Positions 1,180 through 21,396 of a DNA stretch of 21,396 bases are shown piece after piece (position 1 is the stretch's first letter; each line of letters starts with the position of its first letter). Source of the DNA: a virus (Duplodnaviria > Heunggongvirae > Uroviricota > Caudoviricetes); IMG/VR virus record IMGVR_UViG_2737471827_000008, positions 1 to 21,396 of that record; one strand, written 5' to 3'. Below the pieces are notes generated by a model. It was not told the origin of the DNA. It worked only from the letters and a program-made list of their open reading frames with translations, and searched no databases. Position numbers and translations under genes: made by a program.

Positions 1180-1781
1180 GGATTCACTCTCATTGTGTCA
1201 ATAACATGGACCGCCCCGCCTTCATGCGCGGTGCCACCGGAAATAATCGTTTCGTTGATATACGGATAGATCGTGATTTCTTCGCCAAGATAGCTGGCGG
1301 CTCCCACCCAATGCGGGCCGCTGGTCTGCAGATTGATGGACATGCCGATCATGTGGCGGCTACATGGTTTGGCATCGCTTATCAGTCGCTCAAGTTCCAG
1401 ATAGGTATCTTCAGTGATGCCCTGGTCCTGCACGCCGATATCCAGGCGAAACGTGCCCGGTGTTTCTCCGGTCTGCCACCACTCAATAATGCGGATCAGG
1501 AATCCGAACGGCTCCACCACCCGCCGCACGGCACTGGTGGTCCCTTTATGCTGATGAATATAAAAAGCATCCTTCACCACCTGGCGCTTGACGCTTTCTG
1601 TCCAGCCCTCGTCCCAGCGATCCACAGAGAACGCCCAGGCGAGATAAGGCAGGAAACTGACCGGACAGGTTGCCGGATTCCACAAATCACGAAGCGGCAC
1701 CTGCAGATCAGAAATCCCGCTGCAGGTTTGCGCCAGTCGGCGCTCCAGTGGTGTTGAACCCGGTGGCAGCAGACTATTCAT
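1176..1781 (-). CDS. I: Baseplate/tail protein I (P2 gpI-like)
   Basis: 201 aa ORF with N-terminal LLPPGSTPLERRLA motif typical of gpI; sits between J and H as in P2 and overlaps both neighbours. Confidence 0.75.
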   Translation of the reverse strand: MNSLLPPGSTPLERRLAQTCSGISDLQVPLRDLWNPATCPVSFLPYLAWAFSVDRWDEGWTESVKRQVVKDAFYIHQHKGTTSAVRRVVEPFGFLIRIIEWWQTGETPGTFRLDIGVQDQGITEDTYLELERLISDAKPCSRHMIGMSINLQTSGPHWVGAASYLGEEITIYPYINETIISGGTAHEGGAVHVIDTMRVNP

Positions 1782-2556
1782 CCGTTCCTCCGTTGGTTAC
1801 GCTCCACTGCGTACATGATGCCGCCTGTGTTTTGTTCAGGACCACATCCGCCAGAGGAGAAGCCAGCTCCACACGCTGCACCCCCTCAACATGCAGTGCG
1901 GCAAAGATGGCGCTACGGCGAATATCCCGACCAAGACGCGTCTGACTGGCGATGTACTTCTGCAGGCTGGCTTTTGCCGCTGCCATTACCGGCTCTGCTT
2001 CCGGTCCAGGATAGAGAAAAATGGTGGCTTCCACGCGATACGGGATGATTTCTGCGCTGCGAACCGTAAGACGGTCAGCCACCGGGCGGACGTTCTCACT
2101 GTTCAGAGCTTTTTCCACCACGTCCAGCAGGTCTTTTTCTGCAGTTCCATCGCCTTCGCGGCTAAGGACAGTCAGCACCACCTCTGCAGGTGCCGGGCTG
2201 GTTGCACTGGCATCCGCCACCCGACCGTCGGCGCTTCGGGCATGAAATTCATAAGCTGCAGTTGGCCCCGCAACAGAAAGCCCTTCAAAGGCTGCAGGCA
2301 CACGCAGGCGCAACGCTTCATCGCTTTCCATCACAGCTGCAACGGGCGGCACAGCATCATTATCAGCAGGCGTCACCGTCAGGCGTGTCACGTTGTAGTT
2401 GGCAGCGAGCTGGTCAAGATCGCCGCCCATCGCGTAAGCCACCATCACCGCCTGCGCGGCTTCGTTAATGCGCTGGCGCAGAAGCAACTCACGGTAAGCG
2501 TTCTCCTGCAACAATTTAGTGACGGGTTCAGATTCCAGTTCCAGCGTGCGGATCAC
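1774..2556 (-). CDS. J: Baseplate assembly protein J (P2 gpJ-like), N-terminally truncated; only a GTG start, possible pseudogene
   Basis: 260 aa ORF resembling the gpJ family as I recall it (P2 gpJ about 302 aa). Frame is open upstream only to a TAA at 2605-2607, with no ATG. Its GTG overlaps the stop of the R fragment. Confidence 0.6.
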   Translation of the reverse strand: MIRTLELESEPVTKLLQENAYRELLLRQRINEAAQAVMVAYAMGGDLDQLAANYNVTRLTVTPADNDAVPPVAAVMESDEALRLRVPAAFEGLSVAGPTAAYEFHARSADGRVADASATSPAPAEVVLTVLSREGDGTAEKDLLDVVEKALNSENVRPVADRLTVRSAEIIPYRVEATIFLYPGPEAEPVMAAAKASLQKYIASQTRLGRDIRRSAIFAALHVEGVQRVELASPLADVVLNKTQAASCTQWSVTNGGTDE

Positions 2557-2696
2557 TGCTTCCTGCTCATCTTTCGGATGGCCCCCGTGGCAACCAGCGA
2601 ACCGTTATCCACAAACAGATGCAGTTTGTCCGGGTTATTGCGAACATAAGGCACCGCTTTATTGAGGGCGTGGCGCAGGGATTGTGGTTTGTTCAC
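2553..2696 (-). pseudogene. R: Tail completion protein R (P2 gpR-like), N-terminal 47-codon fragment
   Basis: GTG start at 2696 preceded by AGGAG. Translation VNKPQSLRHALNKAVPYVRNNPDKLHLFVDNGS... resembles the gpR N-terminus as recalled, then diverges and stops after 47 codons (P2 gpR about 155 aa). Confidence 0.4.
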
Positions 2697-2949
2697 TGTT
2701 TCGCTCCTGACACGCAATAATCATGTCCACTTTGTCTGCACAGACCGCCCAGGCGGCCTCCGTTTCATCCAGCAACGCATTCAGATCACCGTTAGTGCGC
2801 GGTGCTGCCTGCTCCAGCCGACACGGCGTCACTCGCGGACAACCACTGACGGTAAGCTGCACCTCCGGTGAGCGTCGGACGTTCCCGCAGCCGGATAATG
2901 TCAGCAGGCAAAGGAGTATCAGCCCAGCGGCGTAAATCCTCGTTCTCAC
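2659..2949 (-). CDS. lysC: LysC-like outer-membrane spanin lipoprotein (Rz1-like), overlapping lysB in another frame
   Basis: 96 aa ORF with signal peptide and lipobox LTLSG|C. Begins inside lysB in a different frame and extends past it, the P2 lysB/lysC overlapped-spanin arrangement. Start is GTG, so the exact start is uncertain. Confidence 0.55.
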   Translation of the reverse strand: MRTRIYAAGLILLCLLTLSGCGNVRRSPEVQLTVSGCPRVTPCRLEQAAPRTNGDLNALLDETEAAWAVCADKVDMIIACQERNSEQTTIPAPRPQ

Positions 2950-3220
2950 GTTTCAGTTTCTCAATCCGGCGTTGTCGTTGTCTCAGCAGTGCGCTGGTCT
3001 GTTCTGCTTCGGCATAGAGCCGCGCCTGCTCCCGGTTATTGGTTTCAGTCAGAATGGACAGGCTGATAAGCTGGCTGTTGCTCTTTGCCAGTGCCTGGCT
3101 TTTGCTCTGCAGCTCGTCTGCCTGCGTGCTAATGGTCTGGCTGGCATCAGCCAGCCGCCACGTCTGCCAGCCCAGAGCCGCCAGTAATAACGCCAGCACA
3201 ACCAGCAGCAACCGGTTCAT
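2792..3220 (-). CDS. lysB: LysB-like inner-membrane spanin (Rz-like)
   Basis: 142 aa with an N-terminal transmembrane segment (LLLVVLALLLAALGW) followed by a charged coiled-coil-like region; ATGA overlap with lysA. Confidence 0.65.
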   Translation of the reverse strand: MNRLLLVVLALLLAALGWQTWRLADASQTISTQADELQSKSQALAKSNSQLISLSILTETNNREQARLYAEAEQTSALLRQRQRRIEKLKRENEDLRRWADTPLPADIIRLRERPTLTGGAAYRQWLSASDAVSAGAGSTAH

Positions 3221-3594
3221 GCTGCTACCTGTTGCGCCATCTGATTACGGGTGATCCAGAAGGCAATAACGGTCAGTAGATAAAAGACCAGGGTAATAGC
3301 CCACCCCGTCCATGCGAGACTTACAACAATCAGCAATCGCATCACCCAACTGATAAATACGTTTTCTTTTCGGGTAATTGTCTTCAGCAAAGATGCCCTT
3401 AACTCCTGCCAGAGCGGGCCATTCTGAATTAACGCAGCCAGTGCTACCGGAATTACCGCCCATGTCAGCAAACAGGCTACCCAAACGCCGGACGCTGCCA
3501 GTACCGGAAAGATCCCCTGCGGATACACCATTGCTGCGATTAACAGCGCCATCCATAACATCAGAAACAGTCCGCTGATTAATTTCTTTTTCAT
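3217..3594 (-). CDS. lysA: LysA-like polytopic membrane protein (lysis timing)
   Basis: ATG at 3594 (MKKKLISGLF...) with GGGAG upstream; about 125 aa with four hydrophobic segments; sits where P2 lysA sits, downstream of the endolysin. Confidence 0.55.
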   Translation of the reverse strand: MKKKLISGLFLMLWMALLIAAMVYPQGIFPVLAASGVWVACLLTWAVIPVALAALIQNGPLWQELRASLLKTITRKENVFISWVMRLLIVVSLAWTGWAITLVFYLLTVIAFWITRNQMAQQVAA

Positions 3595-3595
3595 T

Positions 3596-4108
3596 TCAGT
3601 TTGCTCCCTGTAAACACCAGGCCATCTCCCGCGCACGGCGGTTATCCAGCCCCTGATTAAACACACCTTTTACATAAACCCAGCGCGGCAACTGTCGGCA
3701 CGCATCCGCCCAGCGCCGCTGATTGAGCAATTTCACCAGCGTGGAGCTGCAGGCATTGCCTGTCCCCACGTTGAAGGCAAACGACACCACCGAGTCATAC
3801 ACCTTTTGTGGCGGCTGTTGCTTCACACATCTTTCCAGCGCCCGCTCCACACGCAGCACGTTGGAGATAAGCCCTTCTGCTGCCTGTCGTTCCGTAATGG
3901 TTTTGCCGGGAATGACGCCCGACGTATTACCAATGCCGTCAGTCCATACACCCGCGCTGCACTGATACGGCTGCAGACGACAGCCTTCGTAATCGGCAAT
4001 CAGTTTCAGTCCCTCCACGGAGGTGTGAAGCTGCTGAAAACCCGGCAGCGTGGCAGCAATAGCCAGCACGGTCCCGACAAGGCAGCGTTTAACGATTGAT
4101 GGATTCAT
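3596..4108 (-). CDS. Endolysin, T4-lysozyme-like fold with an N-terminal SAR (signal-anchor-release) segment; phage 21 R / P1 Lyz type
   Basis: 170 aa; weakly hydrophobic Gly/Ala-rich N-terminus (VGTVLAIAATLPGF) followed by lysozyme motifs (YEGCRLQPYQCSAGVWTDGIGNT...FAFNVGTGN...RRW). Confidence 0.8.
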   Translation of the reverse strand: MNPSIVKRCLVGTVLAIAATLPGFQQLHTSVEGLKLIADYEGCRLQPYQCSAGVWTDGIGNTSGVIPGKTITERQAAEGLISNVLRVERALERCVKQQPPQKVYDSVVSFAFNVGTGNACSSTLVKLLNQRRWADACRQLPRWVYVKGVFNQGLDNRRAREMAWCLQGAN

Positions 4109-4511: not shown

Positions 4512-4975
4512 CAGATAAGCTCCACTGTGCAGTGCGGCGCGTCCTGTACCCGGCTGATGGCCCAGCGGGCGTCACGCCATAAATCACCGCTGGCTTCCGC
4601 CAGTTCCTCGCCCCGCTTCACACCGGATGCCGTGGCGTCATAGTCCTGGTAACGTTCGTTGAGCATGGCGCGTGCCCAGCAGTAAACCGCGTTGAAATAG
4701 TGCTGAATGCGCTCACTTTTGCCGTCCAGCTGTTCCGCCGGAACCTCTGCCAGCGAGGCATACCCCAGCATCTGCTGGCGTCTGCGAAACTCATACAGCT
4801 CTGCGTTGACCTCCGAAATTGCCGACAGCGCAACCTGCTTTAAACGCGGCTGCGTCACCGTGCCGTCAGTGCGCATGACACTGCGAAACTCCGACAGGTC
4901 CACATCAGGCCAGAACGGCGTATTTCTGATGATTTCCGCCTGTTCCGGTGCCTGTTCTGGCGCAACAAACTTCAT
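4511..4975 (-). CDS. L: Head completion/stabilisation protein (P2 gpL-like)
   Basis: Start placed at ATG 4975 (MKFVAPEQ...) with AGGAGA upstream; the 5038 ORF start is a GTG with no RBS. Position after M matches P2. Confidence 0.75.
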   Translation of the reverse strand: MKFVAPEQAPEQAEIIRNTPFWPDVDLSEFRSVMRTDGTVTQPRLKQVALSAISEVNAELYEFRRRQQMLGYASLAEVPAEQLDGKSERIQHYFNAVYCWARAMLNERYQDYDATASGVKRGEELAEASGDLWRDARWAISRVQDAPHCTVELI

Positions 4976-5070
4976 GCTGCTTTCTCCTGAAATAGAGGGC
5001 GGTGGACGGGGTTTTGATGTGGCAGTGCCTTTCGCCACCCCGTGCCGCCCGTGCGCGGGGGCACGTTCTG

Positions 5071-10625: not shown

Positions 10626-10964
10626 TTAACAAACGGCGTATAAACCATCAAATCCAACGGAATGAACCTTTTTTGATGCTACTTCATTACTACGGCGTTG
10701 GATCACTTTTGCAATACTTTTTAAAATTGAAGGGGGTGCATTGCGAACCTTAACTTGACTCAAAACTTTGGTTACACCGAATTTCACTACCAAAACACCA
10801 AAGATTTCATCAGAGTATGATTCTGAAATTGAATAAACACCGCTCAGATCTAAATCTACGGTATACCCTTCTTTAATGAACCCTTCAATCTTGTGTCGTT
10901 GGGGGATAGCCTGATTGCGCGAAGCCAGGTCACCCTCGGGTAACTTGTATGCGATTTTGTTCAT
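10626..10964 (-). CDS. STAS-like (anti-sigma-antagonist fold, DUF4325-like) small protein; second gene of the accessory operon
   Basis: 112 aa containing VDLDLSGVYSISESYS, resembling the DLSGV/Ser-rich loop of RsbV/SpoIIAA-type STAS domains. ATG overlaps the stop of the upstream gene (TAATG); AGGAGG RBS embedded in the upstream gene's 3' end. Confidence 0.5.
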   Translation of the reverse strand: MNKIAYKLPEGDLASRNQAIPQRHKIEGFIKEGYTVDLDLSGVYSISESYSDEIFGVLVVKFGVTKVLSQVKVRNAPPSILKSIAKVIQRRSNEVASKKVHSVGFDGLYAVC

Positions 10965-11938
10965 TACTCTCCTCCTAACGCCCGCATTATTTCCATAAGC
11001 TGAGGGTCATTTTCTTCGCTATCTTTATCGACTGCCAGTTCATGAATCTTAAAACGGCAAGAAATTGCTACACCCGGCCATTCAGTACGTAATTCAGTAT
11101 AGCTCACTTCATCACCTATTGCTTCTAAGCATACATTTCCTGAAGCCAGTTGCAATTCCCCATTATATGTTTTTATCAATTTCATCAAGTGATACAACCC
11201 AAGCCCTTGATGATTATTATCTTTTTCTTTGACCGAAACCCCGTGGCCAAACACACTACCCCCAATAAAGTCCTGGGGAAGCTGCTGTGCCCAATCATCC
11301 TGCAAATCAGCATGCTTAGATGAATGTCCCTCTTGAATACACCATGCGATCGCATCCTGGTGAGTCTCAATTCCGGGTATACCAGCTCGCCGCAATTCTC
11401 GGAGAAATCCTAACCCACAGTCCGCCAAAGAAAATTCTAAATAGTGCTCTTTTTTTTGAGTGTGGGGTACAGCCGAACGTTGTGCAAAAGAAAAACCCGT
11501 TGATTTTCCATGCGACCAAACGTTATCGTGAAGCTCACCTATAACATGGGTTAGATCTGTAAGTCCCTTGGGACAATCTCTCGGATCACGATCAGGGAAT
11601 GTTAACTGCCTTACACAACTGTTAATACTACCAGTGGCAACGTCAACAGCTTCAACATTGGTTAATGCTGTAACCAAACTGTAATTTCTTCCAACATTTA
11701 CACGTTCCTGTTGATACTGATCCTCTCCCCATAAAGCACCATGTAAATTGATAGCTCGCATATAGCCAGGGCATGACAAAACACAGTTATCTTCGGTAAT
11801 TTTGTGATGATTCACGTAAGCTGCTAAGACAGTGATAAAACCAGGATGCCAATGATTGTTTGGCAATTGCAATTCATTAGTTTCCTTTTGATGAAACGCA
11901 GCGGTATGCACAATAGCGTCTTTTAATCCTAACCCCAT
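10964..11938 (-). CDS. GHKL-family (HATPase_c, RsbW/histidine-kinase-like) ATPase/kinase with an N-terminal domain of unknown function, about 120 aa
   Basis: 324 aa. Bergerat-fold motifs readable in translation: N-box IGELHDNVWSHG, G1 box LADCGLGF, G2 box HQGLGLYHL. AT-rich relative to flanking late genes. Confidence 0.6.
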   Translation of the reverse strand: MGLGLKDAIVHTAAFHQKETNELQLPNNHWHPGFITVLAAYVNHHKITEDNCVLSCPGYMRAINLHGALWGEDQYQQERVNVGRNYSLVTALTNVEAVDVATGSINSCVRQLTFPDRDPRDCPKGLTDLTHVIGELHDNVWSHGKSTGFSFAQRSAVPHTQKKEHYLEFSLADCGLGFLRELRRAGIPGIETHQDAIAWCIQEGHSSKHADLQDDWAQQLPQDFIGGSVFGHGVSVKEKDNNHQGLGLYHLMKLIKTYNGELQLASGNVCLEAIGDEVSYTELRTEWPGVAISCRFKIHELAVDKDSEENDPQLMEIMRALGGE

Positions 11939-11967
11939 GAACCGAACCTTTTTTATGCATTTTTCTT

Positions 11968-11996
11968 ATCATATAACTTAGGACTGATCAGCGCAA
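11968..11996 (-). promoter_or_regulatory. Candidate sigma70 promoter for the GHKL/STAS operon
   Basis: Minus strand TTGCGC-17 bp-TATGAT (forward 11991-11996 and 11968-11973), about 30 bp upstream of the 11938 ATG; spacer contains a GATC. Confidence 0.3.
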
Positions 11997-12056
11997 AGCT
12001 CCCGACACTATTGAATCATACTAAATTAAGGCCTATACCACACAGCACAGCGCGCG

Positions 12057-12075
12057 CTCGTATCCCCGCCACGCC
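12057..12075 (-). other. cos-like sequence (candidate cohesive-end site)
   Basis: Minus strand reads GGCGTGGCGGGGATACGAG. The first 13 nt match the 19-nt cohesive end of phage 186 as I recall it (GGCGTGGCGGGGAAAGCAT); flanked by a CATG-rich repeat region. Confidence 0.35.
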
Positions 12076-12548
12076 TGCCCGCTTTATGTAGTAGTTTTCA
12101 TGCACCTGCATGACATGAGCAAAAGCTCGCCAGTTCTGGCATGTCTTAGCCAAACCGATCCTCAAACGATCATGCGAACTCATGCAGCATAGACATGCAT
12201 GACATGAAAATCGGTCAAACCTTGAAACCAGTCATAAATATGAGCCAGCTTAATACACACTAAATAGCTGCGTCTAATACTGCTACACCTGCCGTTTACT
12301 GACATGTGGCATGTCGCGTAAGGACAACATACTGTAGGCCAGATACAGCAGGATCAGGCGAAGAAAACGGCCCCACGCCTTACCCAGCAAGGGCCAAGGG
12401 CTAACCGAAAGTGGAGCATTATTCCGCGCAGTTATTTAGTGTCAGCTCTTTTGAGCTAAAATCAAGTTTCAACATGAGGGTCTGTGCAGGCTTTCTCATC
12501 CCGCTAATTTATACAGCACACCTATATGGCTATGAGTTTGTCATGCCC

Positions 12549-12580
12549 GCTAATCCTGTTAGGATTAGCCTTGTTTTTTT
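12549..12580 (+). terminator. Perfect 9-bp inverted repeat with T-tract (intrinsic-terminator-like hairpin), 18 bp upstream of the lipoprotein ATG
   Basis: GCTAATCCT-gtt-AGGATTAGC followed by cttgttttttt. Confidence 0.35.
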
Positions 12581-12597
12581 ACGATTGGGATAGGGAT

Positions 12598-13404
12598 ATG
12601 AAGAAATTAACTGGCGTAATTGCTTTTGCTCTGCTGCTTACTGCTTGTGACAAACCGAAGATCGATGCATCAAGCGATCAGTCGATGAAAGAGTCCATTC
12701 AAAAAGTAAGAGAGTCCTTACCTGCAGATAAAAAAGCTCAGTTTGATGATGCAGTTAAAGTCGTTGCCTTTAGCCAAATCAACATGAGAGAGCTAATGCA
12801 GGCTGGAACGTCTTCTGGGGACGTCTACGAAACAAAAATTAAGTCAGCGCTGGAAGGTAAAACTGGTGATGAGGTTATAAATTACGCACAAACTATTCGC
12901 CTTGAGCGTGAGAAGAGAGAGAAAGAACAGGCTCTGCAAGAAATAAAAGAACTGGAAGCCAAACAAACCTCTGCAACACAGGCTGCGGAAAAAATGAAAG
13001 CCTTCAAGGTCGAACGTTCCCGTTTTTATTTCCAGAAAGAGGATTACGGCAATGATCAGCCAATTCTGGATATTAGCGTTGAAAACGGAACAGACAAAGC
13101 GGTTGCCAGAGTATTCTTCAAAGGAGTTATTGCCAGCCCAGGAAGAAGCGTCCCTTGGTTCTCTGACGTCTTCAACTATAAAATTTCTGGAGGTCTGGAA
13201 CCAGGTGAGAAAGCCAACTGGAAATTAGCCCCTAATAGATACTCTGATTGGGGAAAACTTAAAGTTCCGGCTGATGCTATATTTACCGTCACAGTCATTG
13301 GCCTTGAAGACGCAGATGGGAAATCGATCTATGGTGACGCCGAGTTTTCAGAACGCGATGCTGACAGACTGAATCAACTTAGAGATAAGTACCTTTCTAA
13401 ATAA
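12598..13404 (+). CDS. Lipoprotein of unknown function (accessory gene)
   Basis: Start placed at ATG 12598: MKKLTGVIAFALLLTA|CD is a classical lipoprotein signal peptide with Asp at +2 (inner-membrane retention rule). About 268 aa mature, charged, coiled-coil-like middle region. The ORF-track extension from 12526 runs through the terminator-like hairpin. Confidence 0.6.
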   Translation: MKKLTGVIAFALLLTACDKPKIDASSDQSMKESIQKVRESLPADKKAQFDDAVKVVAFSQINMRELMQAGTSSGDVYETKIKSALEGKTGDEVINYAQTIRLEREKREKEQALQEIKELEAKQTSATQAAEKMKAFKVERSRFYFQKEDYGNDQPILDISVENGTDKAVARVFFKGVIASPGRSVPWFSDVFNYKISGGLEPGEKANWKLAPNRYSDWGKLKVPADAIFTVTVIGLEDADGKSIYGDAEFSERDADRLNQLRDKYLSK

Positions 13405-13428
13405 TCAAAATTAAAGCTACTTCAGCAT

Positions 13429-13455
13429 AGTCCCTGAGAATATATATCAGGGACT
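13429..13455. repeat. 9-bp perfect inverted repeat between the two lipoprotein genes
   Basis: AGTCCCTGA-gaatatata-TCAGGGACT; no T-tract follows. Confidence 0.3.
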
Positions 13456-13512
13456 ACCAAATCACGGCAGATACCCCTTAGTTAAATAATGCTAAACGCT
13501 TAGAAAGAGACC

Positions 13513-13812
13513 ATGAAACGTATAACTTTCTCCTTTACGTTAGTAGCAATCATCATAGCCTTAGCTGGATGTGCTTTGCCAGATAAAGACGGCGACTTCG
13601 GAGCTTATGTTCATGCCTGTCAGCAATATGCATACGGAAAATCCTATGCCTTTGAGAATAGAGACTTCGCGTATAAGGTCTGTAAGGACGCGGCGAAACT
13701 GTGGAGTGAAGAAGTTCCTGGCTATATCATCAGGCAAATTCAACTACATCCTGAAATACCCAGCGAAGAAATTAAATATGCAGCCATGGCCGGCTCTTTG
13801 GGTAACAACTAA
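13513..13812 (+). CDS. Small lipoprotein of unknown function (accessory gene)
   Basis: 99 aa; signal peptide with lipobox LAG|C (MKRITFSFTLVAIIIALAGCA...); three further Cys in the mature part. Confidence 0.55.
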   Translation: MKRITFSFTLVAIIIALAGCALPDKDGDFGAYVHACQQYAYGKSYAFENRDFAYKVCKDAAKLWSEEVPGYIIRQIQLHPEIPSEEIKYAAMAGSLGNN

Positions 13813-13825
13813 ATCAACTTATGAG

Positions 13826-13849
13826 AAAGGGGCTTAATGCCCCTTTTCG
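13826..13849. terminator. Intrinsic terminator between convergent lipoprotein gene and the LexA-controlled small gene
   Basis: aaAGGGGCttaatGCCCCTtttc. Confidence 0.55.
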
Positions 13850-13879
13850 GTTCCCTTATCAAGTCCTAACGAAACAAGC

Positions 13880-14068
13880 TCAACTGATTACATCCATCGA
13901 CCTACTGTATTCATGGCTTCGAATTTTCGCCATCAACTCATCAGTCAATTCAGAAACCCACTGCAGAGCTAGCCCCTTCTCTTCATCACTACACTCACTA
14001 GCCGCTACAAGCTTAAGAAAAAAATCAATGCGCTGGAGCTTCAAAGACTCCAAAAAATAGTCCTGCAT
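13880..14068 (-). CDS. Small protein (62 aa) behind a LexA box; candidate SOS-inducible antirepressor (Tum-like position)
   Basis: ATG at 14068 (MQDYFLESLKLQ...) preceded by AGGAGG with 4-nt spacer. Immediately downstream of gene A, same strand, where phage 186 carries tum. The longer ORF-track version (start 14170) would include the promoter. Confidence 0.5.
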   Translation of the reverse strand: MQDYFLESLKLQRIDFFLKLVAASECSDEEKGLALQWVSELTDELMAKIRSHEYSRSMDVIS

Positions 14069-14109
14069 CTTTCCTCCTATAACACCATACGCAATACTGT
14101 ACATATAAC

Positions 14110-14152
14110 CACTGTTTATATTTACAGTATATAATAATCTTACTGATGTAAA
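14110..14152 (-). promoter_or_regulatory. LexA (SOS) box overlapping a candidate promoter
   Basis: caCTGTttatatttACAGta at 14110-14129 fits CTGT-N8-ACAG with an AT-rich spacer. On the minus strand a TTTACA (-35-like, 14147-14152) and TATACT (-10-like, 14126-14131) overlap the box. Confidence 0.55.
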
Positions 14153-14221
14153 ACGTTTTTTTACGTTCATCAGCCTGATATGCCTGGTATTATTAAGAGC
14201 ACGAATTGTTAACCCGCGTGA

Positions 14222-19291: not shown

Positions 19292-19416
19292 GATGCAACA
19301 TTCCTCGTTTAATGATGATTAATCAGGACGAATACGGATCGTTTGTATTTTGTGAACACCATAAACATACGATCGCACAGTGAAATCGTCAAGATAAAAG
19401 TTCACTTGGAGTGACC
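19292..19416. promoter_or_regulatory. Lysis-lysogeny switch region between apl and cI
   Basis: AT-rich 125-bp gap between divergent regulators containing GTGAAC (19352-19357), GTGAAA (19379-19384) and GTTCAC (19400-19405) half-site-like repeats. Confidence 0.4.
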
Positions 19417-19986
19417 ATGAATTTGGAGAAAGGCGGACGAGGCGCTATAGAGCGCATGGTAGAAGCTTATGGATTCAAGACTCGACAGGCGTTGTGCGAT
19501 CATTTAGGAATCTCTAAAAGTACACTCGCCACACGCTACATGCGTGACTCATTCCCAGCAGAATGGGTAATCCAGTGCGCCCTTGAAACAGGCACCTCGC
19601 TTAATTGGCTCACAACCGGGCATGGTTCAAAGCAAACTTCAGGTAATACAAATACTATGGAAGTTGCTAAATATGTATTATCTGATGGGGCCTTGTGTGA
19701 AGACGGTTTTTATATTTTCGATAGAGAATTTCTACCGTCGGCATTCAAGAATCTTTTTGTAATCACAGATAATAATTCTGAATTTATTTGTGATAAGGAA
19801 TTTGATGATATACGTGATGGTAAATGGGTAATAAGTATTGATGGCGAAATAACGATCCGTGACATTACTCGTTTACCCGGTGGAAGAATCTTCGTCGAGG
19901 GTGGAAACAGAGCCTTCGAGTGCAAGATAGAAGATGTTGAAATAATTGGGAAAATTATAAGTTTAACAATTAAGTACGTTAGGTAA
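19417..19986 (+). CDS. cI: CI immunity repressor (phage 186 CI-like)
   Basis: About 189 aa from ATG 19417 (GGAG RBS); N-terminal HTH-like segment (TRQALCDHLGISKSTLATRYM) and C-terminal oligomerisation-type domain; upstream of int on the same strand. Confidence 0.75.
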   Translation: MNLEKGGRGAIERMVEAYGFKTRQALCDHLGISKSTLATRYMRDSFPAEWVIQCALETGTSLNWLTTGHGSKQTSGNTNTMEVAKYVLSDGALCEDGFYIFDREFLPSAFKNLFVITDNNSEFICDKEFDDIRDGKWVISIDGEITIRDITRLPGGRIFVEGGNRAFECKIEDVEIIGKIISLTIKYVR

Positions 19987-20001
19987 TACCGGGAGGAAAC
20001 T

Positions 20002-20193
20002 ATGCTTGGTAAGGTATTTTTTGTGGTTTTATCATGCTCTTTGTTATTAAACCCACTAACTACCTATGCTAAAAATTATCCTTGTTCTGGGAAAAAGGGA
20101 GGTGTCTCTCACTGTACCTCCGATGGAAAGTTCGTTTGCAATGATGGAACTATTAGTAAATCAAAAAAAATCTGTACTAAAAACTCGCGATAA
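20002..20193 (+). CDS. Small secreted Cys-rich protein (63 aa), unknown function
   Basis: Strong RBS GGGAGG 5 nt upstream; signal peptide [23 protein letters not shown]|K; four Cys in the roughly 40-aa mature part. Confidence 0.5.
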
Positions 20194-20379
20194 ATTTTGC
20201 TTTTATATCTGCGCCTAATATAACAATGAGCCGCAGGCTAACCGCAAAAGTCACATACTCACATAGCAAAAAATAGCTAACTTCATTATGGCTTCAGTGA
20301 GATGTATGGTCGCAGGATTTCATACATTGACACTGGTTATACATACAGTAAAAATGCTCTCTACTGGAGGGCATTTTTT

Positions 20380-21396
20380 ATGGCAGTACGAAAACTCACC
20401 ACAGGAAAATGGCTTTGCGAATGTTACCCCGCCGGACGTAGTGGACGTCGTGTGCGTAAACAATTCGCCACCAAAGGCGAAGCTCTGGCTTTTGAGCGTC
20501 ACACGATGGAAGAAACCGAAGCAAAGCCCTGGCTGGGCGAATCAGTGGATCGTCGGACATTGAAAGACGTGATTGAGCTATGGTTCAAACTACATGGTAA
20601 ATCTCTGACAGCTGGGCAGCATGTCTATGACAAACTGCTGTTGATGGTTGACGCTCTGGGCAATCCCCTTGCAACTGATCTAACCTCTAAAATGTTTGCC
20701 CACTATCGAGATAAACGCCTGACAGGTGAGATCTACTTCAGCGAGAAATGGAAGAAAGGAGCAAGCCCGGTCACCATTAACCTGGAGCAAAGCTATCTAA
20801 GTAGTGTTTTTAGCGAACTATCCCGCCTGGGCGAATGGTCGTATCCGAACCCACTGGAGAACATGCGAAAATTCACCATCGCAGAAAAAGAGATGGCATG
20901 GCTTACCCATGAGCAGATTGTTGAACTGCTGGCTGATTGCAAACGTCAGGACCCAATTCTGGCACTGGTAGTCAAGATATGCCTAAGCACAGGCGCACGC
21001 TGGCGAGAAGCAATAAATCTTACCCGCTCGCAAGTGACCAAATACCGAATTACCTTTGTAAGAACGAAGGGGAAGAAAAACAGAAGCATCCCTATCAGTA
21101 AAGAGCTTTACGAAGAGATCATGGCGCTTGATGGGTTCAATTTCTTTACAGACTGCTATTTTCAATTTTTATCCGTGATGGAAAAAACGTCTATCGTGCT
21201 CCCTCGCGGTCAACTGACACACGTTCTGCGCCATACGTTTGCGGCGCACTTCATGATGTCGGGTGGAAATATCCTTGCTTTGCAAAAAATCCTCGGACAT
21301 CACGATATAAAAATGACTATGCGCTATGCCCATTTAGCACCCGATCATCTTGAGACGGCTCTGAGATTCAACCCCCTCGCAACGCTAGAAGTGTGA
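20380..21396 (+). CDS. int: Tyrosine recombinase / phage integrase (P2-family)
   Basis: Start placed at ATG 20380 (MAVRKLTTGKW...) with GGAGG upstream; C-terminal catalytic region with ARWREA, HVLRHTFA and MRYAHL motifs (R...HxxR...Y); stop is the last codon of the window. Confidence 0.9.
   Translation: MAVRKLTTGKWLCECYPAGRSGRRVRKQFATKGEALAFERHTMEETEAKPWLGESVDRRTLKDVIELWFKLHGKSLTAGQHVYDKLLLMVDALGNPLATDLTSKMFAHYRDKRLTGEIYFSEKWKKGASPVTINLEQSYLSSVFSELSRLGEWSYPNPLENMRKFTIAEKEMAWLTHEQIVELLADCKRQDPILALVVKICLSTGARWREAINLTRSQVTKYRITFVRTKGKKNRSIPISKELYEEIMALDGFNFFTDCYFQFLSVMEKTSIVLPRGQLTHVLRHTFAAHFMMSGGNILALQKILGHHDIKMTMRYAHLAPDHLETALRFNPLATLEV

Follow-up and report, generated by a model that had tools for sequence, protein, structure and literature searches.

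Small envelope lipoproteins encoded by phages and prophages, such as Llp of T5 and Cor of phi80 and N15, mask an outer-membrane receptor and block the entry of related phages. In the P2-related phage K139, the gene glo is carried in the order cI-orf2-glo-int and is read from PL; its product has a signal peptide, is annotated in GenBank as 'periplasmic protein; involved in phage exclusion' and has been called an immunity gene of the K139 family (PMC4870250), and the interval between cI and int in K139-like Vibrio phages has been described as a defence hotspot (PMC9122126). Two further proteins need to be introduced here. YdcA of Escherichia coli K-12 (b1419), encoded at the chromosomal cybB-trg locus, consists of a signal peptide and one domain of about 35 aa with four cysteines and the motif PCSGxKGG(V/I)SHC; deletion of ydcA in E. 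coli W caused sensitivity to 300 mM 3-hydroxypropionate (3-HP), and the gene was reported to be acid-induced via YdcI (PMC7642389). Legionella Dis2 (Lpg0823) is an exported, disulfide-rich protein whose two lobes are pinned by five disulfides (PMC8486379). It adjoins the outer membrane in the Dot/Icm cap, where it contacts DotK, DotC and DotD as part of a 13-fold machine, and it has been described as Legionella-specific and dispensable, with only subtle effects of its deletion.

The window, by which we mean the whole stretch of 21,396 nucleotides that was analysed, belongs to a 186-like phage of the P2 family and covers part of its genome. It encodes capsid, terminase, portal, gpA replication protein and Dam methylase genes, together with a TraR/DksA-type zinc-finger protein, Fil, CII, an Apl/Cox-like gene, cI and int, and an Rfam search of the whole window matched no family. 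The gene considered here lies between the last two, and the features of this interval and its flanks are as follows.

19364..19392, minus strand: promoter-like site TTGACG-17-TATGTT directed toward apl/cII, from a consensus scan
19411..19986, plus strand: cI immunity repressor of the 186 type (Pfam Phage_CI_repr, E 2.8e-33; Phage_CI_C, E 8.7e-27)
19991..19996, plus strand: Shine-Dalgarno sequence GGGAGG, read in the sequence, with the 5-nt spacer AAACT to the ATG
20002..20193, plus strand: YdcA-family gene for a 63-aa precursor (open reading frame list; NCBIfam, PHROG, RefSeq name, dN/dS)
20002..20070, plus strand: predicted Sec signal peptide, residues 1-23, with cleavage after T-Y-A (hydrophobic profile, model helix, homologue leaders)
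20071..20190, plus strand: predicted mature domain of 40 aa with four invariant cysteines (alignments, charge and pI, model core pLDDT about 90)
20163..20170, plus strand: A8 homopolymer in the coding region (codons S54-K55-K56-I57), just 5' of the fourth cysteine
20194..20379, plus strand: spacer between the YdcA gene and int, free of plus-strand terminator-like sites
20327-20355: promoter-like site TTGACA-17-AAAAAT inside this spacer, from the scan
20380..21396, plus strand: P2-type tyrosine integrase int (Pfam Int_N, E 2.5e-32; Phage_integrase, E 6.3e-22)

The reading frame runs from an ATG at 20002 to a TAA at 20191-20193, and its length, coordinates and ribosome-binding site agree exactly with those given in the first-pass annotation, which had also placed it correctly between a repressor gene (the 186-type cI upstream) and an integrase gene (the P2-type int downstream), as the Pfam matches established. 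RefSeq labels the upstream product 'phage repressor protein CI' and starts it at an ATG 6 nt further downstream; its stop codon ends at 19986, leaving a gap of 15 nt to the YdcA gene. The site at 19364..19392 on the minus strand is likely to be the lytic pR of the 186-type switch, a call that constitutes weak evidence because the consensus scan returned no more promoter-like sites in the region than in shuffled sequence. The YdcA gene lies inside a block of about 35% GC that begins in the C-terminal half of cI, ends at roughly 20300 and is flanked by DNA of 48–51% GC. A mosaic junction falls near 20322, the point from which the sequence resembles the int module of Klebsiella phages, and the int DNA is 96% identical to that of Klebsiella phage 4LV2017.

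We compared 94 related loci carrying 15 distinct DNA alleles of the reading frame, eleven of which belonged to the lineage found in E. coli prophages. Between the window and the most frequent diverged allele there were 12 differences in 192 nucleotides, and all of these changes except one (K24R) were synonymous third-position substitutions, an excess with a binomial P of 7.6e-7. The dN/dS ratio (Nei-Gojobori) was 0.02–0.06 for the YdcA gene in comparison to 0.06–0.12 for cI in the same genomes, and the peptide retained 98% amino acid identity where cI retained 85%. The first-pass annotation had named drift among close relatives as the observation that would speak against it; drift was looked for and was clearly absent. 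On this pattern of substitution, the reading frame at 20002-20193 is a genuine gene, and the higher conservation of the peptide than of the adjacent repressor suggests that its target is generic and not tied to immunity type. At the A8 tract, the diverged allele has A7, and rare database variants (P0002 and P0004) are frameshifted around this tract. An out-of-frame reading frame at 20066-20218 was rejected as a second gene, as it corresponds to the product given in these rare frameshifted entries.

The N-terminus of the precursor has the shape expected of a Sec leader processed by signal peptidase I (SPase I), with K4, a hydrophobic stretch of 12 residues, N-P and then T-Y-A ahead of K24. Ala23 was conserved in at least 90% of 43 homologues, while the remainder of the leader was hypervariable yet always hydrophobic. 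The signal peptide proposed by the first-pass annotation is therefore well founded as a prediction, and cleavage would occur after Ala23. A lipoprotein reading of the leader sequence 'LSC' was considered and rejected, since the residues before C12 are V-L-S and the Leu at position -2 is unfit for the lipobox [LVI][ASTVI][GAS]C; only 11 residues precede this cysteine, which is missing in most homologues.

The predicted mature peptide has 40 aa, a mass of 4.27 kDa, a pI of 9.6 and a net charge of about +7. Its length and four cysteines are as first proposed, and the comparison adds that all four cysteines are invariant in the family. Across 43 sequences, 14 columns were invariant (P27, C28, S29, K32, G33, G34, C38, F44, C46, G49, S52, S54, K55 and C58), 13 of which were counted in the mature domain, with P27 falling within three residues before the first cysteine. 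The four-cysteine pattern was also invariant in alignments limited to the mature domain. An AlphaFold model based on 42 homologues had a mean pLDDT of 77, rising to about 90 for a disulfide core at residues 31-50, and it contained a leader helix at residues 3-15 and a small beta hairpin.

Profile searches placed the protein in a named family. NCBIfam model NF007463 (PRK10040.1-2) matched at 116.1 bits against a cut-off of 93 (E 4.2e-34) over profile positions 1-58 of 58, while the K-12 YdcA model NF007462 scored 68 bits, below its cut-off of 118; PHROG 6000 was matched at E 4.6e-34. RefSeq lists the identical protein as WP_001321204.1, under the names 'YdcA family protein' and 'hypothetical protein'. 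PF27300 is listed in precomputed tables for the cluster representative at 97% identity (P0001) and for nearly all homologues, and a direct Pfam scan of the reading frame, with a model set that did not include PF27300, returned a single sub-threshold chance match. The window protein shows the family arrangement of a signal peptide followed by a single four-cysteine domain with the motif PCSGxKGG...FxCxDGxxSxSK..C, and it is 57% identical overall to K-12 YdcA with the whole motif common to both. Membership of this family and the existence of a K-12 paralogue mean that the window protein is neither an orphan nor unannotated, and by these matches the known annotated YdcA family (PRK10040, PF27300) was overlooked in the first-pass annotation.

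The family comprised 461 representative clusters in a set of 1.84 billion proteins, or 569 clusters at 90% identity, and species-level genome matches numbered 226 across the alpha-, beta- and gammaproteobacteria. The best 120 matches of the large protein search were all short single-domain proteins. Database sources label relatives 'periplasmic protein', and the UniRef label of the E. coli protein is 'Conjugal transfer protein', which is a database name alone. No papers were found when the literature was searched with the RefSeq accessions, PF27300 and PRK10040. It is important to note that 'YdcA' in other papers refers mostly to unrelated genes, namely a Bacillus rhomboid protease, a plasmid methylase and a gonococcal island gene, and these were set aside.

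Dis2 was the only solved structure that matched the window protein. When all PDB sequences were searched with the profile, it gave the best match (E 1.7e-4), with both of its lobes aligned to the YdcA motif, and it was also the top Foldseek match (probability 0.97, 38% identity over 40 columns, E 0.12). When the leader was removed, the Dis2 profile match weakened to E 0.048 and was then no stronger than matches to LDL-receptor repeats (E 0.017). The LDL-receptor class A matches obtained with the mature-domain profile (E 0.017–0.1) were set aside as probably reflecting Cys, Asn and Gly composition over 21 residues. An hhalign comparison with a Dis2-like metagenomic protein that itself carries PF27300 gave a probability of 81.5% and a P of 1e-5, and a search of the BFVD viral fold library gave nothing under E 0.5. 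Taking these comparisons together, we consider homology between the YdcA family and Dis2 to be probable.

Longer members of the family contained two or three tandem domains, basic low-complexity tails or a VasL-type fusion. In 5-7 of 149 representatives, a signal peptide and a YdcA domain were followed by a nuclease, and these nucleases represent three folds unrelated to one another: Endonuclease_NS (five cases, three of them confident and two partial), a staphylococcal-nuclease-like (SNase) domain in one case and a PLD-like domain in one case. The YdcA domain was basic family-wide, with a mean net charge of +3.8.

Region 19300-20380 was 100% identical to prophages of several E. coli strains and 99.9% identical to the prophage beside rcdA in E. 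coli B, REL606 and BL21(DE3). In NC_012967.1, the corresponding gene occupies 882335-882526 on the minus strand, next to cI at 882542-883111. The module was present in about 590–744 of 5,426 complete E. coli genomes, and at least 534 IMG/VR viral contigs encoded a relative. Among the sequenced enteric P2-like phages of the phage collection, including those with the same int, none carried the YdcA gene, and the match of Klebsiella phages with a 96%-identical int to the window started only at 20322.

Homologues at the same position in related prophages, the search recommended by the first-pass annotation, were found behind the repressor in several P2-like lineages. The YdcA gene lay directly downstream of the repressor in at least five such lineages, with the order cI-ydcA-int in E. 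coli, Yersinia and Haemophilus HP2-like phages and cI-ydcA in Buttiauxella, and across the repressor-linked lineages cI was only 24–38% identical and int 47–64%. In E. coli and Escherichia sp., ydcA stood immediately behind cI, while in three Yersinia species it followed cI after a 47-nt gap; one lineage carried a 144-aa signal-peptide protein between cI and ydcA, with int directly after ydcA. Haemophilus phages HP2 and S2 contain an unannotated homologue of 60 codons whose ATG overlaps the cI stop, and in HP2 the promoter pL is annotated upstream. This overlap was constant in HP2-like viral contigs, in which ydcA and int were separated by a variable 777 to 1342 nt. An HTH_3 repressor stood one to two genes upstream of ydcA in P2-like prophages of betaproteobacteria and Kingella, where the tail genes gpU and gpD were nearby. 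This fixed place behind the repressor in many P2-like phages can be interpreted as the phage requiring the gene product throughout lysogeny. Elsewhere, Escherichia has a stable chromosomal cybB-ydcA-trg locus, a separate chromosomal context is conserved in Citrobacter and Atlantibacter, and phages of Moraxella, Acinetobacter and Pseudomonas also encode family members. In viral contigs outside the P2-like group, homologues were flanked mostly by PHROGs without a function label and by toxin-antitoxin genes, which by gene content supports a moron context and gives no functional pointer.

Comparison of gene content between cI and int showed that, in the 186-like phages compared, this interval is a variable cargo slot. 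It is empty in Salmonella phage SEN8, where int starts 3 nt past cI; it holds an uncharacterised 349-aa protein in Klebsiella phage 4LV2017, a 558-aa ATPase in vB_EcoM-813R9 (inserted at the same rcdA site) and, in HP2, ydcA with a 254-aa protein that has a signal-peptide-like N-terminus. In E. coli TUM13773, ydcA is accompanied by a KAP NTPase gene inserted in the ydcA-to-int spacer, and this NTPase matched the PADLOC candidate defence model PDC-S20 at E 3e-171. When the window protein and its HP2 homologue were searched against PADLOC-DB 2.0, neither matched any family at E <= 0.01. The moron reading offered at first pass is thus borne out by the low-GC block, the variability of the slot and the lack of the gene in enteric P2-like phages with the same int.

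The gene had also been assigned to the lysogenic transcription unit, and its arrangement fits this placement, given the 15-nt gap after cI and the lack of a plus-strand terminator-like site anywhere between cI and int. Co-transcription of the YdcA gene with cI from a lysogenic promoter is suggested by this lack of a terminator and by the lysogenic promoters annotated in HP2 and K139, and the gene's own strong ribosome-binding site would drive translation of the YdcA-family protein. The precursor would be exported by Sec and its 23-aa leader removed, after which two disulfides, presumably made by the Dsb system, would lock the 40-aa basic domain in the periplasm. As long as the repressor is present, the protein may consequently reside there, probably in the vicinity of the outer membrane. 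Overall, it is very probable that the window encodes a real, exported YdcA-family moron that is made in the lysogen.

What this protein would do is a matter of graded preference. As a whole, our best explanation is that a P2-family prophage moron gives the lysogen an envelope-level trait, and we hold it tentatively. The form of this trait that we prefer is that the protein would block the entry of foreign DNA or phage at the periplasmic face, as superinfection exclusion or defence, through binding to a polyanion (the incoming DNA) or to an outer-membrane complex; taken by itself, this exclusion or DNA-entry mechanism is doubtful. Interference with DNA or phage entry is favoured by the analogy with the Glo slot and the defence cargo that shares the interval, by the nuclease fusions and basic charge, both suggestive of a protein that binds DNA or is directed to an entry port, and by the precedent of Dis2 at a machine related to DNA-transfer systems. 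The stable chromosomal YdcA contexts and the acid and 3-HP phenotype of the K-12 type point to a housekeeping envelope role and stand against exclusion, the nuclease fusions could reflect anchoring in place of DNA binding, and we counted the absence of both a PADLOC match and homology to Glo against it as well, together with the weakness of the Dis2 similarity once the leader is removed, the dispensability of dis2 and the generic target suggested by the conservation of the peptide.

A more general conjecture, which we regard as unlikely, is that the YdcA/PF27300 domain is an extracytoplasmic disulfide-locked module that binds DNA or docks at an outer-membrane port of DNA transit, that its free-standing, repressor-tied copies in P2-like phages of several bacterial genera constitutively and generically block incoming DNA in the periplasm (superinfecting genomes and possibly conjugation or transformation), and that it was taken up on two further occasions, once to target secreted nucleases from their N-terminus and once, in duplicated form, as Dis2.

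Alternatively, the gene may be a lysogenic-conversion or host-fitness factor, in which a diverged extra YdcA would aid envelope function or tolerance of acid and organic acids with no anti-phage or anti-DNA role. The fixed chromosomal ydcA of Escherichia and the separate conserved contexts of Citrobacter and Atlantibacter agree with such a role, as do the 3-HP sensitivity of the E. coli W deletion and acid induction via YdcI (PMC7642389), the full motif shared by the phage copy with K-12 YdcA, and the high conservation of the phage protein whatever the immunity type of cI. However, this explanation does not account for the link to the repressor in many P2-like lineages, for a slot shared with defence-type cargo or for fusions to secreted nucleases, and the K-12 phenotype is indirect and derives from one study. 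As the main rival, it is about as probable as the exclusion mechanism taken by itself and likewise doubtful. Periplasmic exclusion and conversion were both among the options of the first-pass annotation, and either may apply.

A docking role similar to that of Dis2, in which the peptide would modulate an outer-membrane lipoprotein or machine (a secretin, a pilus, an OmpA-like protein or conjugative type IV secretion) and would not bind DNA, is quite improbable. It draws on the top rank of Dis2 in both the PDB sequence and fold searches, on the hhalign match to the PF27300-carrying Dis2-like protein (P 1e-5), on the position of Dis2 against the outer membrane in contact with its three Dot partners, and on the UniRef 'Conjugal transfer protein' name. 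Set against these points, the similarity becomes marginal once the leader is removed, the one domain here compares with two lobes and five disulfides in Dis2, E. coli B lacks a Dot/Icm system, and the dis2 deletion itself had only subtle effects.

The first-pass annotation had included a toxin or bacteriocin-like peptide among its options, and the possibility that lysogens release a secreted toxin, bacteriocin or antimicrobial peptide against competitors is very unlikely. The peptide is small, cationic (+7) and disulfide-stabilised and in this respect superficially defensin-like, but a Sec-type leader stops at the periplasm in a Gram-negative cell, and the double-glycine-type leader with immunity and export genes by which bacteriocins and microcins are recognized was not found. 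The neighbours are cI and int, with no adjacent immunity, export or modification gene; the conserved chromosomal paralogue is likewise a single gene without a partner, and the existence of multi-domain and enzyme-fused members speaks for a binding module. This option was therefore left without support. A function in the phage life cycle, whether in lysis, virion release or control of int through upstream-ORF translation, is highly improbable, for although the YdcA gene lies just upstream of int and presumably on the same transcript, the slot is empty in viable relatives such as SEN8, the gene is missing from sequenced enteric P2-like phages, selection acts on the amino acids of the exported domain and not merely on its translation, and most of the family is not phage-borne.

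Returning to the envelope-level trait that we prefer, its interest lies partly in how widely the module is carried: roughly every eighth or ninth complete E. coli genome has it, BL21(DE3) and REL606 among them. An exclusion or conversion role, if true, would give the YdcA family a role, would extend the envelope-level exclusion or conversion factors by a new type and would provide a functional lead for Legionella Dis2. Should the protein be only a stress-tolerance paralogue, it would be an example of a prophage carrying a host envelope gene. Four points drawn from the genome and profile comparisons are new, namely the conserved tie to the repressor in different genera, an HP2 gene that had gone without annotation, the connection with Dis2 and the fusions to nucleases.

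In summary, the locus can be set beside each of the described systems. The window gene lies in a prophage lysogenic operon in contrast to the chromosomal locus of K-12 ydcA, and its product has another leader, a short extra C-terminal tail (KNSR) and NF007463 as its best model. The window protein shares with Dis2 its predicted export and its disulfide-rich character; it differs in having a single domain with four cysteines, in being much more basic and in belonging to a host without Dot/Icm, its gene being located between cI and int of an E. coli P2-like prophage. The Llp and Cor proteins are lipoproteins, whereas the window protein has no usable lipobox. Homology to Glo of K139 was rejected (hhalign probability 1.6%, with only the leaders aligning), and Glo differs in its length of 137 aa and in its cysteine bridging. 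By position and predicted export, the window gene is nevertheless of a known kind, an exported accessory-protein gene in the cI-int slot of P2-like phages, and Glo, with its signal peptide and its place in the same slot of a P2-related phage, is by analogy the best functional comparison for the window protein.

Operon comparison of the interval between the repressor gene (cI) and the integrase gene (int) in related prophages identified additional cargo beside the YdcA-family gene. The prophage of E. coli TUM13773 has an insertion that separates the YdcA-family gene from int, a gene for a KAP-family NTPase (L171, the TUM13773 locus, 1712-3043), whose product matched the candidate defence system PDC-S20 in PADLOC (E 2.9e-171). 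This insert marks the stretch from cI to int in these related prophages as a slot for cargo or defence genes. In another P2-like lineage (locus L185), cI and the YdcA-family gene were separated by an ORF (4561-4995) for a protein of 144 aa whose N-terminus resembles a signal peptide, and int began a few bases past the YdcA-family gene.

Haemophilus phage HP2 carried an unannotated YdcA-family gene of 60 codons (3420-3602 of its compared locus, L002, corresponding to about 2486-2668 of NC_003315.1, minus strand), and an unannotated 60-codon family gene was also present in phage S2; the reference records of both phages had no feature entered at this position. In HP2 and S2 the ATG of the gene overlapped the stop codon of cI, and orf1(S) and int followed downstream.

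The window itself showed a single low-GC block made up of the YdcA-family gene together with the C-terminal half of cI, followed by a mosaic junction where likeness to the int module of Klebsiella phages begins and GC climbs from about 35% to about 48-51%. Frameshifts in the rare database variants P0002 and P0004 occurred near an A8 run within the YdcA-family gene, at the site of which the diverged allele had A7; either sequencing error or slippage could account for these variants. The window features concerned, together with the portal-replication region, were:

10626-14170, two small cassettes between the portal (gpQ) and replication protein (gpA) genes
19600-20300, low-GC block
20163-20170, A8 run inside the coding region, directly ahead of the fourth Cys
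about 20322, mosaic junction

The portal-replication region is the known P2 hotspot. One of its cassettes encoded a 112-aa DUF4325/STAS-like protein and a 324-aa protein of no assigned family on the minus strand, the other a 292-aa DUF6694 protein and a 99-aa protein of no assigned family on the plus strand, and the region had a further 96-aa ORF; none of its genes matched a full system in PADLOC.

Domain analysis of the family showed that some members (P0096, P0153, P0164 and P0160, and also P0174, P0204, P0149 and P0182) are secreted nucleases of SNase, Endonuclease_NS or PLD-like type in which the YdcA domain separates the signal peptide from the nuclease part; that part of P0182 resembles an HNH nuclease by eye. 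In P0098 the YdcA domain was fused to a domain of VasL type (type VI secretion). Members from betaproteobacteria with lengths of 101-153 aa (P0056, P0057, P0060-P0062, P0100, P0125 and others) possessed a second Cys-rich module at the C-terminus (C.C...CTGPRGG.YC) with weak Pfam matches to PBCV_basic_adap.

UniRef labels the protein of the P0001 cluster, from E. coli, Salmonella and Klebsiella, 'Conjugal transfer protein', an unverified name that is curious beside the link through Dis2 to type IV secretion. The Legionella Dot/Icm subunit Dis2 has been described in the literature as Legionella-specific and without structural relatives; both of its lobes (PDB 7MUC chain AN) aligned to the widespread YdcA motif (PF27300), and precomputed tables record PF27300 for a Dis2-like protein (P0229, P0230).
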